From: Chloroflexia bacterium
GTDB lineage: Bacteria > Chloroflexota > Chloroflexia > QHBQ01 > JAICKM01
NCBI GenBank assembly: GCA_038252265.1
Contig: JBBSAN010000002.1
Location: 1 to 35,202, forward strand
Direction of reading: 5' to 3'
Length of the DNA: 35,202 nt
A model generated the notes under the pieces. It did no database searches, was not told the DNA's origin, and saw nothing but the letters and a program-made list of their open reading frames with translations. The position numbers were made by a program, and so were the translations under genes. This document shows, one piece after another, positions 1,194-33,750 of this stretch (positions are counted from its first letter, which is position 1; each line of letters begins with the position of its first letter).

Positions 1194-1224
1194 AGTGGTT
1201 GGTGGTTAGTGATTGGTGGTTAGT
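1194..1224. repeat. Tandem 7-bp repeat tract (RGTGRTT)
   Basis: agtggtt ggtggtt agtgatt ggtggtt agt; degenerate inverted partner of 1403-1434. Confidence 0.75.
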
Positions 1225-1298
1225 CCTCGAACGGCAATTGTCCGTTTCGACATGGCTGGCTCTGGATGGATAAGAATAGCTAACATCCCAAAGAACTG

Positions 1299-1402
1299 AC
1301 GTTTGATGCATAATCCCCAAATTAGGCACGAGCGGGGGTGCGCTTTCGACTGATCTGACCCCCTGTCCAGGCATGGATAAGGGTGGGTTATGCATCAAAC
1401 GT
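1299..1402. mobile_element. 104-bp MITE-like element
   Basis: Perfect 15-bp terminal inverted repeats ACGTTTGATGCATAA (1299-1313) / TTATGCATCAAACGT (1388-1402), flanked by direct repeat AACTG (1294-1298 and 1403-1407). Confidence 0.75.
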
Positions 1403-1434
1403 AACTGATAACTAATAACTGATAACTGATGACT
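1403..1434. repeat. Tandem 7-bp repeat tract (AACTGAT) overlapping holB 3' end
   Basis: aactgat aactaat aactgat aactgat gact; encodes the terminal SVISY* of HolB. Confidence 0.85.
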
Positions 1435-2500
1435 CGGTAGGCAATTGTAGGACCAGGCTTTCCAGCACGAGGCGCGGGTTGAGGTTCTGATCCAGCCCCT
1501 GGCGGGCGGCTTCGATCCCGGCCAGAAAGGTGACGATCTGGCGCTGCTCATAAGTCGGGGCGAGGCGGCCCAGTGTCTCCACCCGGTCGGTGTTCTGCAC
1601 CAGGGCGGTTACCCCGGCGCGGGTCAGCAGCAGGTCGCGCCACCACCCCGCCCACAGGGCCAGTACATCGAACACGGCTTGGCGATTGCCGGAGAACCGC
1701 GCCGCCAGGTCGGCGGCAAAGGTGAAGCGCGCCGGGAGGTCCTGTTGCACCAACTCGATCAGCGTGGTCAACAATTCCTGGCGGGCCAGGAGCCGGTCGG
1801 GGTGGAGGCCCATCTCGACCCCCCAGCCCAACCGCCCGCCCGACAGCGCCGCCAGGAGCGTGGCCTGCGCCGGGGCGATTCCCCATCGTTCTTGCAAGGC
1901 GCGTTCCACCACCGGGCGCGGCAAGGGGCGCAGAATCTCCATGCGGCAGCGCGAGAGAATGGTGGGTAACAGGGAGCCAGGATCATCGGCCAGCAGGATC
2001 AGTACCGCGTAAGAGGGGGGTTCTTCCAACGTCTTCAGCAGGGCGTTGGCGGCAGAGAGGCTGAGGTGTTCGGCGTCTTCCAGGATGACGATGCGCCACT
2101 GACCGTCGTAGGGCCGCAGGCTCACACTTCGTTCCAGGGTGCGCACCGTCTCAATCGAGAGTTCTTTGTTGGCGCTTACCCGGCCCCCGGCGGCCACTTC
2201 GGCTGCCTGCCGGGCCAGGCTGAACCACTCCACATCGGGGAAGGTGTCGTGGGCGATGCGGACGCAATTGCGGCACCGGCCACAGGGGACCTCGCGATAG
2301 ACTCCGACGGGCGTGGTGTCGTCCAGTGCGCCGGGGTCACCCAGGCAGTTGAGCGTCTGGGCAAAGGCGCGGGCCAGGGGGCGCTTGCCCACACCGGGTG
2401 GCCCGGTCAGCAGCAGCGCGTGCGCCACCCGGCCCTGCCGCAGCTCGCGCCGCAGCACTTCGACGGTTCGGGTGTGTCCTACAATCGGCCAGTCAGACAT
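1412..2500 (-). CDS. holB: DNA polymerase III subunit delta'
   Basis: HALLLTGPPGVGK, Zn cysteines (LNC...PCGRCRNC), AANALLKTLEEPP, LLPTILSRC; 362 aa. Confidence 0.92.
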   Translation of the reverse strand: MSDWPIVGHTRTVEVLRRELRQGRVAHALLLTGPPGVGKRPLARAFAQTLNCLGDPGALDDTTPVGVYREVPCGRCRNCVRIAHDTFPDVEWFSLARQAAEVAAGGRVSANKELSIETVRTLERSVSLRPYDGQWRIVILEDAEHLSLSAANALLKTLEEPPSYAVLILLADDPGSLLPTILSRCRMEILRPLPRPVVERALQERWGIAPAQATLLAALSGGRLGWGVEMGLHPDRLLARQELLTTLIELVQQDLPARFTFAADLAARFSGNRQAVFDVLALWAGWWRDLLLTRAGVTALVQNTDRVETLGRLAPTYEQRQIVTFLAGIEAARQGLDQNLNPRLVLESLVLQLPTESSVISY

Positions 2501-2506
2501 AGGAGT

Positions 2507-2647
2507 AACGAGTGATGAGCGATGAGTGATGAGAACGAATGACGAGTGCTGAGTGCTGAGTGCTGAGTGCTGAGGTCACTCTAGTCGCTGGCTGCGTTCC
2601 TCAGTGCTCATTGCTCATTGCTCATTGCTCATTGCTCGTCACTCGTT
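2507..2647. repeat. Inverted pair of 7-bp tandem repeat arms (GATGAGY/GAGTGCT ... CTCATTG)
   Basis: Left aacgagtgatgagcgatgag...(gagtgct)x4; right (ctcattg)x4 ctcgtcactcgtt. The outer 20 bp pair with two G:T wobbles on the + strand. Confidence 0.9.
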
Positions 2648-3528
2648 CACCGTTTGGCGGGACGGTTGGAGGACAGGGGCTGGGTGGCGGCAGGGTCGGA
2701 ACCAGGGCGGCGCTTGGCCGCCGGAGGAGAACCCGACCGGGTCGGCGTGCCCGGTTTGGCTGCCGGGGGGGCTTTCTCCACCACAACGGGCATGATGCCG
2801 CGCAGGGCGGCGATGAGCTGGTTGCGCTCGTTGGTGGGCAGCAACACAACCCGCTTGGCCTCCGACGGTCCGGCCATGACATACTCTTTCAGTTCGGGCA
2901 GCCGCAGCACGTCATACTTGCTGCGCTCGATGTTGAGGGCCGTAGCCGGGTTATAGAACGCGACCGCCCCTGCTACCGGCAACGGGCCGGGATGCACCCC
3001 CTGCGCCGTCACCCACTCGCGCAACGCCGCGATCTTGCCGTCCAGCTCCAGGGTGGGATTGCCCAACAATTCATCGCCCCAGCGCGAGACGCGGTCGATG
3101 ATCCCCTGCTTGGCGCGCCAGCGATCCACGCCTTCTTTGCCCTCGGCGCAGGAGACCGTTCCGCCCCCCTCTTTCATCTCGATCACCAGTACGCCGTCGG
3201 GACTGATCAGCACATGATCGAGCACGATCTTGCCCAGCACCACCTGGTGAAACAAGGCATAACGGGTGTTGAGACCCTTCAACTCGGCGGATACCGCCTC
3301 GTCCACCTTGGCGGCGGTGGCCCAGCGGCGGCTCGCCCCGCGCCCCCACAACCACATCGGCCAGCCGACCAGCAGCGCCGGGTAGGCGACGATGATCAGC
3401 CAGGGGATCGTGATATAGACAAAGCTGAGGATGAACGACAGGAAGACCATCCCCATGCCGACCGCCTGGATCAGGAACGCCCGGCGCTTTTGCGACTTCA
3501 GGTACGCGTCGTTGGCTGCTACATTCAT
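2647..3528 (-). CDS. Membrane-anchored NERD (nuclease-related domain) protein
   Basis: Two N-terminal hydrophobic helices, then LDHVLISPDGVLVIEMK (NERD-type D...E-x-K motif); Pro-rich tail. Confidence 0.75.
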   Translation of the reverse strand: MNVAANDAYLKSQKRRAFLIQAVGMGMVFLSFILSFVYITIPWLIIVAYPALLVGWPMWLWGRGASRRWATAAKVDEAVSAELKGLNTRYALFHQVVLGKIVLDHVLISPDGVLVIEMKEGGGTVSCAEGKEGVDRWRAKQGIIDRVSRWGDELLGNPTLELDGKIAALREWVTAQGVHPGPLPVAGAVAFYNPATALNIERSKYDVLRLPELKEYVMAGPSEAKRVVLLPTNERNQLIAALRGIMPVVVEKAPPAAKPGTPTRSGSPPAAKRRPGSDPAATQPLSSNRPAKR

Positions 3529-3532
3529 AAGG

Positions 3533-32388: not shown

Positions 32389-32534
32389 TGTGTGTCTTCT
32401 CCCGTCGTGGGAGCCTCCTTTGATAACCGATAGGGCCGACATACGATGACCGACGAGACAGCCGGTCTGCCGTCGGCTGCCCAGCCGCGTTCGGGCGGGT
32501 CTAGGGGTCGCCCGGCCTGGGCGACCGGGAACCG

Positions 32535-33206
32535 TCAGTGTGGCACGTCCTCGCGGGCAGGACGCGCCGCAAAGTGCAGATCCAGGTGCGCGGGTAAGAC
32601 GTAGGCGATTTGCACCAGGATAATCAACCCCAGGCTCACCAGCGGGCGGACCACGAACGTCAGCAAGATCGCGATGAAATAGATCAGCGGTGGCGTCAAA
32701 ATCCGCCGCGTCACCGTCCGCATCAAGTGTGGCGCGAGAGGCGCGTCTACCAGATGCCCCCGCGTGACCCCATACCACCAGTGGAGATAGAGGATCAGGC
32801 TCACCGCGATCAAGTTAGTGACATAGACAATCAACGCCACCCGGTTGTCTGTGCCCACCTGCGTACCGAGCAGCGCCGTGCTGAACGGGATAAAGGCGAT
32901 CAACCCCAGGAACAGGATATTGATCCACAACAATTCCCGGTTGGCCCGGCGGATATAAAAGAACTGGTTGTGATGCCCCACCCAGTAGATGCCCAGGATC
33001 AGGAAGCTTAGTGCGTAGACCCCGATATGGGGGGCCACCTTGCCTAGCTCCTCGATCAGGGCCGAATCAGACAGGTGGGCGTCGGGCACCTGTAGCTCCA
33101 GCACCAGGAGCGTCATGGCAATCGAAAAAACCCCATCACTCAAAGCCTCGATCCGCCCGGTCCGCAGGCCGTTGCCTTCCGGGCGCGCCGACACGATTTC
33201 GCGCAT
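32535..33206 (-). CDS. TMEM175 family (DUF1211) potassium channel
   Basis: [19 protein letters not shown] signature, [22 protein letters not shown] 33206 with GGAG SD chosen. Confidence 0.9.
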
Positions 33207-33341
33207 AGCGTGTCTCCATGATCGTGGGCTTTCTGTGGGCGGGGCCTGCACATATTGTGGCACAGAAATCTACCGGGTTGAGTAAAAACAACCAACGATT
33301 CCTGCGCCCTGAGCCGCCAATGATAATCCGCACCACTGTAT

Positions 33342-33371
33342 ATTGTACCCTTTTTGACGACCGTTACGCAA
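33342..33371 (-). promoter_or_regulatory. Putative sigma70 promoter for TMEM175 gene
   Basis: Minus strand TTGCGT-N18-TACAAT. Confidence 0.55.
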
Positions 33372-33468
33372 GGTGGCCGCGCGTGTGGAAGGCGGGTCTT
33401 CTCTCCGCCTATAGTTGTAATTACGAGGCGGCGGTAAGGACGGGTAGAGCGTCCGATCTGTGGAGACG

Positions 33469-33660
33469 CCAGCCCCGGAGGGGCGGCAGACGATAGCCCA
33501 CGGTAAGACCGTGGGTTCATAACATGCCTGATCTTCTAGCCCCGGAGGGGCGACAGAGCCAAGCCACAATCTCATCTGTCGCCCCTCCGGGGCTTGCGGG
33601 CGGGAGACAATCCCCACAGTTGGCACTGCGGGCTACCGTCTGCCGCCCCTCCGGGGCTGG
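33469..33660. repeat. Nested palindromic REP/BIME-like element with four AGCCCCGGAGGGGCGRCAGA units
   Basis: Units at 33471-33490 and 33538-33557 (forward), 33575-33594 and 33639-33658 (reverse). Outer 36-bp arms match with 3 differences. Confidence 0.88.
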
Positions 33661-33683
33661 ATCGGGGCATACTCCGCCACCTG

Positions 33684-33750
33684 CTGACTGCTGATTTCTA
33701 ACTTCTAATTTCTAATTTCTGACTTCTGATTTCTTATTTCTAATTTCTGA
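33684..33750. repeat. Tandem 7-bp repeat tract (CTRAYTT), single arm
   Basis: ctgactg ctgattt ctaactt ctaattt ctaattt ctgactt ctgattt cttattt ctaattt ctga. Confidence 0.88.

Follow-up and report, generated by a model that had tools for sequence, protein, structure and literature searches.

Heptanucleotide arrays of a Chloroflexota-like genome form polar inverted arms between genes and around TIGR02436 genes

Tandem heptamers, i.e., head-to-tail repeats of seven-nucleotide units, have been known in cyanobacteria for decades. Here, we describe arrays of this kind in a 35,202-nucleotide stretch of DNA (the window; contig JBBSAN010000002.1), which is contig C2 of a 7.52-Mb assembly (1228 contigs, 65% G+C), and in the whole of that assembly, the genome under study, referred to below as G000. 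The host, from soil or sediment, is Chloroflexota-like: the best relatives of the MoxR protein encoded in the window belong to Anaerolineae and other Chloroflexota metagenome-assembled genomes, with no more than 71% identity. The arrays often stand as two inverted arms around a core, which together we call a module, and the same arm design encloses genes of the TIGR02436 (PF05635) family in G000, in its relatives and in distant lineages. What is new here is the extreme, many-unit character of the case and the association with TIGR02436, while the geometry of such repeats has already been published.

Heptanucleotides are the commonest long simple sequence repeats (LSSRs) in many bacteria, and polymerase slippage has been proposed for them (Mrazek et al. 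2007, as cited in PMC4679880 and PMC4692102). The G000 arrays resemble these LSSRs in that 7-nt units stand in tandem beyond chance, mostly in non-coding DNA, scattered over phyla and with an unsettled cause. Unlike in the LSSR accounts, there are about 2000 to 3000 arrays with 154 canonical units in a single genome, mostly arranged as polar arm pairs together with layered composites; neither this polar and layered organisation nor a link to a gene family is met in the parts of PMC4679880 and PMC4692102 that deal with LSSRs. The closest precedent for the placement is provided by the GGGAATC repeats of Xanthomonas and the GGGGAYT repeats of Nostoc PCC 7120, whose G-rich strand is sense where the repeat follows a stop codon by no more than 50 bp and antisense where it precedes an open reading frame (ORF) by no more than 50 bp, which are rare between divergent ORFs, and which form 70-75 convergent inverted pairs (Rehm et al. 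2015, PMC4692102). The placement geometry of the G000 arrays matches this description, so that neither the geometry nor the over-representation of heptamers is new. The Xanthomonas and Nostoc repeats comprise one unit family per genus and are read in the same paper as G-quadruplex formers, whereas most G000 units have no G-tract; a quadruplex therefore cannot be the common denominator.

The short tandemly repeated repetitive (STRR) heptamers of heterocystous cyanobacteria, cited for Calothrix PCC 7601 in PMC4692102, are likewise short, tandem and intergenic, with several unit types per genome. The G000 host is, however, no cyanobacterium, and the likeness drawn here is one of description. The preliminary description of the window had taken the cyanobacterial STRRs as its precedent, to which the LSSR class and the Xanthomonas/Nostoc repeats (PMC4692102) have to be added. 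Furthermore, TAACTGA direct repeats have been reported from marine Beggiatoaceae and from some Cyanobacteria and Bacteroidetes (MacGregor 2015, PMC4679880). They too are intergenic, adjacent to start codons and patchy in their phylogeny, and the unit TAACTGA itself occurs in the window at 1402-1434; in Beggiatoaceae, there is one dominant unit and one inverted set, as described in the same source, whereas G000 has many units and inverted pairs are common.

A precedent of another kind is the intervening sequence (IVS) in helix 45 of the Coxiella burnetii 23S rRNA, a hairpin whose loop carries an S23p ORF and which is cut by RNase III (Warrier et al. 2016, PMC4990558). It includes two to three tandem heptamers, the number of which varies among strains, and the old idea that IVS inserts are mobile elements is cited in the same paper. 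The likeness to G000 lies in the long stem of terminal inverted repeats, in the PF05635/TIGR02436-family ORF within the loop and in the variable heptamers (PMC4990558). In contrast to the IVS, the G000 modules are situated between protein genes and not in rRNA, those of the window are ORF-less, and their cutting by RNase III is something we only infer. [quoted passage not shown]

Our search, which did not extend to subscription journals and database notes, found no literature on heptanucleotide repeats in Chloroflexi or Anaerolineae. Within the same reach, no paper stating an association of TIGR02436 genes with heptamers as a class was found, and the Coxiella paper was the only one to surface.

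Abundance, polarity and layered architecture of the arrays

The genome was scanned with Tandem Repeats Finder (TRF) at a cut-off score of at least 40 unless stated otherwise. Of 5516 rows in total, 2176 had period 7, against 8, 65, 59 and 242 rows of periods 5, 6, 8 and 9, respectively. Period 7 was the smallest period in 2002 of 4105 repeat clusters, covering 82 kb, while 63 clusters had period 6 and 50 had period 8. Period 7 is thus enriched roughly 30-fold over periods 6 and 8, and the preliminary description proved right in singling it out among its neighbours. A genome shuffled within 60-nt blocks gave 625 TRF rows, none of period 7; by this comparison, G000 has the 7-nt head-to-tail repeats, longer and more frequent than expected by chance, that characterise heptanucleotide LSSRs. 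The arrays numbered 2134 at a score of at least 40 and 2991 at a score of at least 30, in about 1700 spacer clusters, with a median length of 4.6 units (32 nt) and a maximum of 23.4 units. No Rfam family covers them. Of the 2134 arrays, as many as 213 come to within 100 nt of a contig end, and the assembled (Logan) contigs of public runs (three DNA, one RNA) on window positions 15000-34900 stop at arrays, where many foreign contigs stack. Because short-read assemblies break at repeats, the arrays, and probably the TIGR02436 genes as well, are undercounted.

The 154 canonical units cover 2173 rows, the 25 commonest alone accounting for 1727 of them (79%). The preliminary claim of a different unit at each locus therefore holds for the window but not for the genome. 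The commonest units, GATGCGT (227 rows), CAGTGGT (146), CTGATTT (111) and GCGTATT (105), have no run of three G, and units with a G-tract, e.g., GGGGGTT (143 rows), are only a subset. After optimal rotation, the units follow a loose pattern, N-R-R-T-S-A-G, with an information content of 3.63 bits vs. 2.88 ± 0.15 bits for letter-shuffled units. The presence of period-7 arrays is thus confirmed, and G000 is an extreme, many-unit case of a known repeat type.

All arrays are skewed in composition: in the G-rich orientation, they contain 42% G, 11% C, 22% A and 24.5% T. Among neighbouring arrays no more than 400 nt apart, a G-rich array was followed by a C-rich one in 558 cases, and the reverse order was found in 13. 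Written with G and C for G-rich and C-rich arrays, the cluster patterns were GC (403), GGC (102), GCC (79) and GGCC (66) vs. CG (9). Since the arms are inverted, this polarity reads identically on both strands and is independent of gene direction. On each array, the G-rich, C-poor strand has its 3′ end pointing into the spacer, and a module consists of a G-rich arm, a core and a C-rich arm. Two inverted arms with the G-rich one first, as noted before for most of the window tracts, were found at 8 of the 11 window places confirmed by TRF, and the genome-wide counts leave no doubt that the arm polarity is non-random.

The arrays were placed relative to genes called with our own codon-usage model, in which stops are exact and starts approximate. 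Only 15.2% of array bases fall inside called genes, which make up 81% of the genome, i.e., about 85% are non-coding. The number of arrays per kb of spacer was 1.8 in convergent, 1.65 in co-directional and 0.52 in divergent spacers; among spacers of at least 30 nt, an array (TRF score of at least 30) was present in 32%, 26% and 18%, respectively. Altogether, 1052 of the 4164 spacers of at least 30 nt hold an array, which is roughly a quarter. The array nearest to a stop codon is G-rich on the sense strand in 1174 cases (median distance 2 nt) and C-rich in 246, while the array nearest to a start is C-rich on the sense strand in 670 cases (median distance 23 nt) and G-rich in 79. A full module takes up the spacer, beginning at the stop codon upstream and leaving about 20 nt free before the start or promoter that follows. 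That a single period, polarity and placement is common to so many different units rules out explanations tied to a particular sequence, such as a G-quadruplex or a single binding protein.

Inverted neighbour pairs, in which the units are no more than two letters off each other's complement, numbered 343 and comprised 685 of the 2134 arrays, with a median gap of 35 nt. Six modules of the window fold as long stems on both strands, with energies between −30 and −74.5 kcal/mol and z between −2.0 and −9.5. Many modules are layered, and the order of the layers is fixed: GTGATGC stands outside GCGTATT in 49 cases vs. 0 of the reverse order, GTGAAAC outside GCGTATT in 25 vs. 0, and GTGATGC outside AGGGATC in 21 vs. 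0. One composite architecture recurs at 146 loci, window positions 27398-27536 included. A boundary unit that contains ACGAG, or CTCGT in the opposite arm, marks 564 of the 2770 outer ends of arrays vs. 243 inner ends, at a fixed offset in 331 cases, and its frequency in the genome is 0.0009 per nt. The loose unit pattern, the fixed layer order and the common boundary unit show that shared descent or a shared grammar of the arrays is involved; the terminal motif could equally be a frozen old repeat unit rather than a terminal inverted repeat. In contrast to the arms, the cores (25-400 nt) are singletons in 281 of 308 modules, and the largest cluster, of 13 cores, is mainly due to an unrelated MITE inserted in them. 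The uniqueness of the cores means that the modules are not a simple MITE and do not trace to one transposon. The preliminary view that period and geometry are conserved without sequence, which is not what copying of one element would produce, thus stands as far as the cores are concerned and has to be qualified for the arms, whose units are patterned, whose layer orders are fixed and whose boundary unit is shared.

A separate palindromic MITE-like element, with arms that contain TCCTGAGCGCAGCGAAGGA, has 430 arm matches genome-wide, with paired arms typically 89-90 nt apart; 108 of the 430 matches lie within 300 nt of a heptamer array.

Heptamer arms at TIGR02436 genes and turnover at orthologous sites

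We know of no function for the TIGR02436, or "23S rRNA intervening-sequence protein", family, which is a common one. A six-frame search of the whole genome gave 12 matches to PF05635 (23S_rRNA_IVP), and none of them was on the window contig. The results clearly showed heptamer arms at all 12 genes, with a G-rich left arm and a C-rich right arm within 250 nt at nine of them and mostly with complementary units in the paired arms; the remaining three are one-armed, and two of these are at a contig start. The baseline was 68 of 2466 genes shorter than 600 nt. The suggestion, made from the window letters alone, that four-helix-bundle TIGR02436 genes might be a class found between such arms was thereby borne out. 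It was also correctly stated that the window encodes no candidate enzyme; the candidate factor, TIGR02436, has its genes at other places in G000, within arms of this kind. The copies are old and diverse, with a median of 47% and a maximum of 77% amino-acid identity and 51-59% G+C.

One of the G000 genes scored 136.6 bits with the TIGR02436 model (cut-off 24) and 35.5 bits with the model for Avd of diversity-generating retroelements (cut-off 80). An identity as Avd was rejected on this score and because none of the five PF00078 (reverse transcriptase) matches shares a contig with a PF05635 match.

The same arrangement is not confined to G000. The family is present in 25 of 28 genomes of the order, the three unpublished genomes (G005, G011 and G019) having been left out of the sampling. 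Among 26 loci of published same-order genomes, 17 have a G-rich left and a C-rich right arm, three have both arms without clear skew, five have one arm and one has none. Four distant genomes, with records that bear the labels Fibrobacteraceae, Planctomycetales, Dehalococcoidia and Clostridiales, contributed 13 loci, 10 of them with both arms, two with one and one with none; a fifth distant genome has no PF05635 gene.

Two cassette sites of G000 could be compared with G001, a genome of the same genus that is 90% identical over the DUF58-MoxR region of the window. In the tsaE-tsaB spacer, G000 has a left arm, the gene and a right arm, while G001 has a left arm homologous to that of G000, followed after 15 nt by a different right arm, and lacks the gene. 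At the second site, G001 carries an insert resembling an insertion sequence (IS) and no arrays. Neither is a clean empty site, since both hold other inserts in G001. The IS-like insert (L199, contig C99, 1900-3200) is about 1.2 kb long and has terminal inverted repeats and one long ORF; it lies in the spacer where G000 has a TIGR02436 cassette whose left arm measures 162 nt.

To follow the arrays themselves, 22 spacer pairs of G000 and G001 were matched via their flanks, and 20 were kept after two (c0 and c31) had been dropped as G+C-rich, coding-like rows. Arrays were present in both genomes at all 20 orthologous spacers, whose flanks are 83-97% identical, but the dominant unit was off by at least two letters on at least one arm in 13 of them and was the same or one letter off in seven. 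Both arms were altered together and are still complementary in spacers c1, c15, c34 and c36. The dominant arrays of c18 run to 8.1 and 7.6 copies in G000, and, by reading of the sequences, the same units to about two each in G001.

Furthermore, G001 has 1.8 arrays per 10 kb (in 341 kb), and period 7 is the dominant short period in 26 further genomes of the order (samples of 15-80 kb). The array density in the sampled genomes ranges from 0 to 7.5 per 10 kb and varies even within one genus. The polarity is kept in the relatives (GC 50 vs. CG 5). Of 80 MoxR loci of other lineages, seven had any period-7 row, and several rows were found only in L036 (four) and L075 (five).

Origin of the arrays

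G000 brings together two puzzles: tandem heptamers, for which the literature as we have it offers no accepted mechanism or function, and the TIGR02436 family. The reading that we favour is that the window arrays are gene-less hairpin modules of the class whose arms enclose TIGR02436 genes, which change in whole 7-nt steps and by turnover of layers, with the arms kept complementary, and are tolerated only where an RNA duplex and its probable cutting by RNase III are harmless. We consider this reading evenly poised between right and wrong, and it covers the cause of neither the 7-nt period nor the G-first polarity. The polarity on both strands would fit either of two ideas: extension of the strand with its 3′ end directed into the hairpin, or immediate pairing of the C-rich arm, made second, so that it cannot load Rho. 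At the DNA level, gain and loss of whole 7-nt units in place would homogenise variant units, and whole layers would be gained or lost while the two arms remain complementary. Polymerase slippage, the published proposal for heptamer repeats (as summarised in PMC4679880 and PMC4692102), may act here, and we hypothesise that the TIGR02436 protein contributes to the arrays. At the RNA level, the arms would form a duplex of 25 to 60 bp, like the stem of the 23S rRNA intervening sequence; RNase III, the gene for which is present in G000, could cut it, so that an insert between cistrons or after a gene would do no harm. In addition to the arms at every TIGR02436 gene of G000, the array density correlates with the number of TIGR02436 matches per Mb (Spearman 0.74, 28 genomes, regions chosen regardless of the gene), a value to be read with the reservation that the genomes are kin and that both counts suffer from incomplete assemblies, which break at arrays. 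In each of the three genomes that lack the gene, 0 arrays were found in 40-60 kb. Together, the arms and the correlation name a concrete, testable factor. If the link is causal, a widespread non-coding feature of bacterial genomes would be explained, and a new kind of mobile or self-propagating element would be recognised, one that lives where RNA cutting is harmless.

Several observations, beside the reservation just given, weigh against this reading. Genomes G002, G020, G026 and G027 carry the gene yet have 0 arrays in 39-80 kb, and G030, with the highest density (7.5 per 10 kb), has only three genes. The 12 PF05635 matches are to be set against about 1700 gene-less clusters, so that most modules are without a detectable gene remnant. 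The 23S rRNA gene of G000 contains no insert (it spans 2986 nt vs. a model of 2925 positions), and no arrays are found on its contig. The hairpin is not obligatory, since for 595 of the 673 single arrays in the interior, no inverted partner with an exact match of 9 nt exists within 200 nt. Nor was a more stable fold seen on the sense strand, which was the more stable one in 96 and the less stable one in 128 of 224 co-directional pairs (p = 0.05, in the opposite direction). Polar growth was not seen in 465 arrays of at least 42 nt: the half next to the core had a lag-7 identity of 0.895 and the outer half one of 0.892, and there was no purity gradient (the core-side half was higher in 168 arrays vs. 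169). Lastly, the inverted layers were nested in 1-2 and crossing in three cases, with only 4-5 cases being informative.

The fold comparison also decided the fate of another candidate: selection on mRNA-strand structure via G-U pairing was dropped because the sense folds are not more stable. The preliminary alternative of an active generating mechanism or selection for an RNA/DNA structure thus received partial support overall, with its RNA part failing on the sense strand.

The TIGR02436 link may be extended into a more general proposal, which we put forward tentatively and consider rather less probable than its negation. The STRRs, the Xanthomonas/Nostoc repeats, the TAACTGA repeats and the G000 arrays would all be footprints of one widespread, unnamed class of selfish hairpins. 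Its gene-bearing form would be the TIGR02436 (S23p, Avd-like) cassette, the same thing as an ORF-bearing rRNA IVS, and its product, a pentameric four-helix bundle, would work in trans alongside a polymerase or repair enzyme of the host. Arrays would thereby be seeded and then lengthened by 7 nt at a time, on the strand that has its 3′ end facing into the hairpin. If true, this would account for the fixed period as well as for the universal G-first polarity.

Plain replication slippage is the rival that has to be considered first. According to this explanation, the arrays are heptanucleotide LSSR microsatellites, seven being favoured by the length of DNA held by the replicative polymerase; they would arise anywhere in non-coding DNA, selection would filter only place and orientation, and TIGR02436 genes would land or survive in loops already there. 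It accords with the proposal published for heptanucleotides as the commonest long simple repeats in many bacteria (cited in PMC4679880 and PMC4692102), with the different copy numbers and units of G000 and G001 at the same sites, with the unique cores and many single arrays, and with the dominance of period 7 in many relatives, where periods 5, 6 and 8 are near zero. It does not accord with the density, for which the members of a single genus are more than 10-fold apart (G030 has 45 arrays in 60 kb, G020 and G027 have 0 in 60 kb each), since a universal property of a polymerase does not predict such a spread. Likewise, it predicts neither the correlation of the density with TIGR02436 copy number nor the arms around nearly every TIGR02436 gene, even in array-poor genomes, nor the fixed layer order, the shared boundary unit and the strong G/C skew of every array. 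We consider slippage alone an improbable explanation.

Selection for cis-acting expression elements is less probable still, and we regard it as unlikely. The arrays would be 3′-end hairpins that stabilise or end transcripts and insulate genes, or repeated sites for an RNA- or DNA-binding protein. Their location speaks for this: they are denser at gene ends than in divergent spacers, begin a median of 2 nt after stops and keep about 23 nt clear of starts, and the window arrays at 15765 and 33694 end just upstream of promoter-like sites. The complementarity of the arms outlasts the change of units, and regulatory effects of heptamers have been proposed for Nostoc and Beggiatoaceae (10.1101/2022.06.06.494920; PMC4679880). 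In one version, the G-first order is kept because the C-rich arm, which is made second, may pair at once and so cannot load Rho, which G000 encodes; this would fit both strands. On the other hand, 154 canonical units make one sequence-specific binding protein unlikely, species of the same genus differ in their units and even in entire arms, which have been replaced, and there is no folding advantage of the sense strand. Moreover, none of 18 terminator-like sites in 15300-35200 was inside an array, a weak result because the scan was limited to loops of 3-8 nt, and functional selection leaves period 7 unexplained.

Copying of one or a few classical mobile elements (MITEs, or REP/BIME-type elements with a Y1 transposase) by a transposase encoded elsewhere is very improbable and largely contradicted by the data: the dominance of a few unit families, the composite architecture at 146 loci, the inverted ACGAG/CTCGT boundary and the presence of six Y1-transposase genes and of a true, unrelated MITE in the genome would suit it, but the cores are unique, none of the six Y1-transposase (PF01797) genes has an array within 400 nt, the arm lengths are continuously variable, and orthologous sites change gradually and layer by layer rather than by simple presence or absence. 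In this, the preliminary conclusion that the arrays do not trace to one transposon family was upheld.

Modules of the window

The window tracts were scored with TRF at a minimum score of 30 and by direct reading of the sequence. Period-7 arrays were found at 11 of the 12 places named before, the exception being the tract at 20065, which gave no TRF row at a score of at least 30 and is, by eye, only a short degenerate run; all units named before, such as GATGAGT, were seen in the window. The TRF arrays are at 1194/1195, 1402, 2507/2510 and 2600, 7618, 8435/8442 and 8738, 15765/15786 and 15866, 22956 and 23006, 27398 to 27536 (four arrays), 30662 and 30757, 31377 and 31425, and 33694. The arrays at 7618 and 33694 are single. 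The features are as follows (no strand is assigned; the basis is given last).

1194..1224: G-rich heptamer arm (GTGGTTR/GTGATTG), the left arm of its module, between the start of a Band-7 gene and the stop of the DNA polymerase III delta′ gene; TRF periods 7 and 14, sequence reading
1225..1401: 177-nt core, which has a nested palindrome of its own (CGTTTGATGCATAA...TTATGCATCAAACG), matching one other core of the genome; sequence reading
1402..1434: TAACTGA array, the right arm, 4.7 copies, overlapping the last codons of the minus-strand gene 1412-2500; TRF
2507..2574: two-layer G-rich arm (GATGAGY, then GAGTGCT x4) with ACGAG-type boundary units, folding on both strands with its partner (z −5.1 and −5.9); TRF, reading, fold
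2600..2640: C-rich arm (CTCATTG x5), ending in CTCGTCA CTCGTTC; TRF, reading, fold
7618..7652: single array TTTGGAT/TTTAGAT across the short spacer of two glycosyltransferase genes, overlapping their called ends; TRF, gene calls
8435..8583: long, degenerate G-rich arm of about 20 units of the GAGCGAT family, beginning in the last codons of gene 7647-8450; TRF, reading
8584..8737: core with one copy of the separate palindromic MITE-like element (its arms contain TCCTGAGCGCAGCGAAGGA); genome-wide arm matches
8738..8793: C-rich arm (CTCATCG/CTCATTG x8), ending in CTCGTCG; TRF, reading
15765..15829: two-layer G-rich arm, outer GGGGGAT x3, inner TGAAGTT/TGAGGTC x6; TRF, reading
15866..15905: C-rich arm (TCAAACC x4.4, then an ATCCCC remnant); TRF, reading, fold with z −7.7 and −5.9
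20065..20095: short degenerate G-rich run; by eye only
22956..23044: hairpin module of CAGTGGT x4.4, a 19-nt loop and CACTGAY x5.6, filling the 108-nt DUF58-MoxR spacer; TRF, fold −68.5 and −64.4 kcal/mol, z −8.5 and −8.9
27398..27536: composite module of CGTGAAR, CGTGATG, CGTATTG, then CTGAYCC, CTCGTCA, CGTTTCC; TRF, reading
30662..30786: hairpin module of AGAAATC x5, a 53-nt core and CTGATTT x4.3, between gene 29651-30646 and pdxT; TRF, fold
31377..31455: hairpin module of AGGAATG x4.4, a loop and CTCATCG x4.4, between pdxT and pdxS; TRF, fold with z −3.7 and −2.0
33694..33750: single C-rich array ATTTCTA/ACTTCTG x8, just upstream of the promoter-like site of rplU; TRF, promoter scan

Four of these sites illustrate the turnover seen against G001. 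In the DUF58-MoxR spacer (22956), the unit is CAGTGGT in G000, and G001 has GTGGCTC and CACCGAC. At 30662 (c15), the pair is AGAAATC/CTGATTT in G000 vs. TAGTGGT/ACTAACC in G001. At 15765 (c12), G001 has only an outer pair of the GGGGAT/GGGGGTT type, and G000 has an extra inner layer. At 31377 (c16), the left arm is AGGTTTG in G001.

The window genes are ordinary housekeeping ones: they encode DNA polymerase III delta′, a ketoacyl synthase, polyphosphate kinase, ResB/CcsA, a MoxR-DUF58-transglutaminase set, PdxS/PdxT and the ribosomal proteins L21 and L27. Promoter-like sites with an 11/12 match to the sigma-70 consensus were found at 15716-15745 (minus strand) and 33764-33792 (plus strand), 14 to 20 nt outside the heptamer arrays at 15765 and 33694, which places the modules there between the upstream stop and the next promoter. 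Just upstream of the array at 33694 and of the rplU promoter-like site, there are two matches to the Rfam Acido-Lenti-1 RNA, at 33471-33515 (minus strand) and 33613-33658 (plus strand), with 40.7 and 43 bits (gathering score 37); they are in opposite orientation and about 100 nt apart.

At some sites, the upstream gene runs into the G-rich arm, and the repeat supplies its last residues and the stop codon (window positions 1412-1434 and 8435-8450). In the same way, a tsaE-like ORF on another contig of G000 (C713, L156:736-1458) ends with ...ETEIRNRKSEIRDPS within (GAAATCA)n. Finally, an island of low G+C (45% vs. about 65%) at 12000-13000, which adjoins the cytochrome c assembly genes, may be foreign DNA; its ORF 12126-12818 (230 aa) has no Pfam match.

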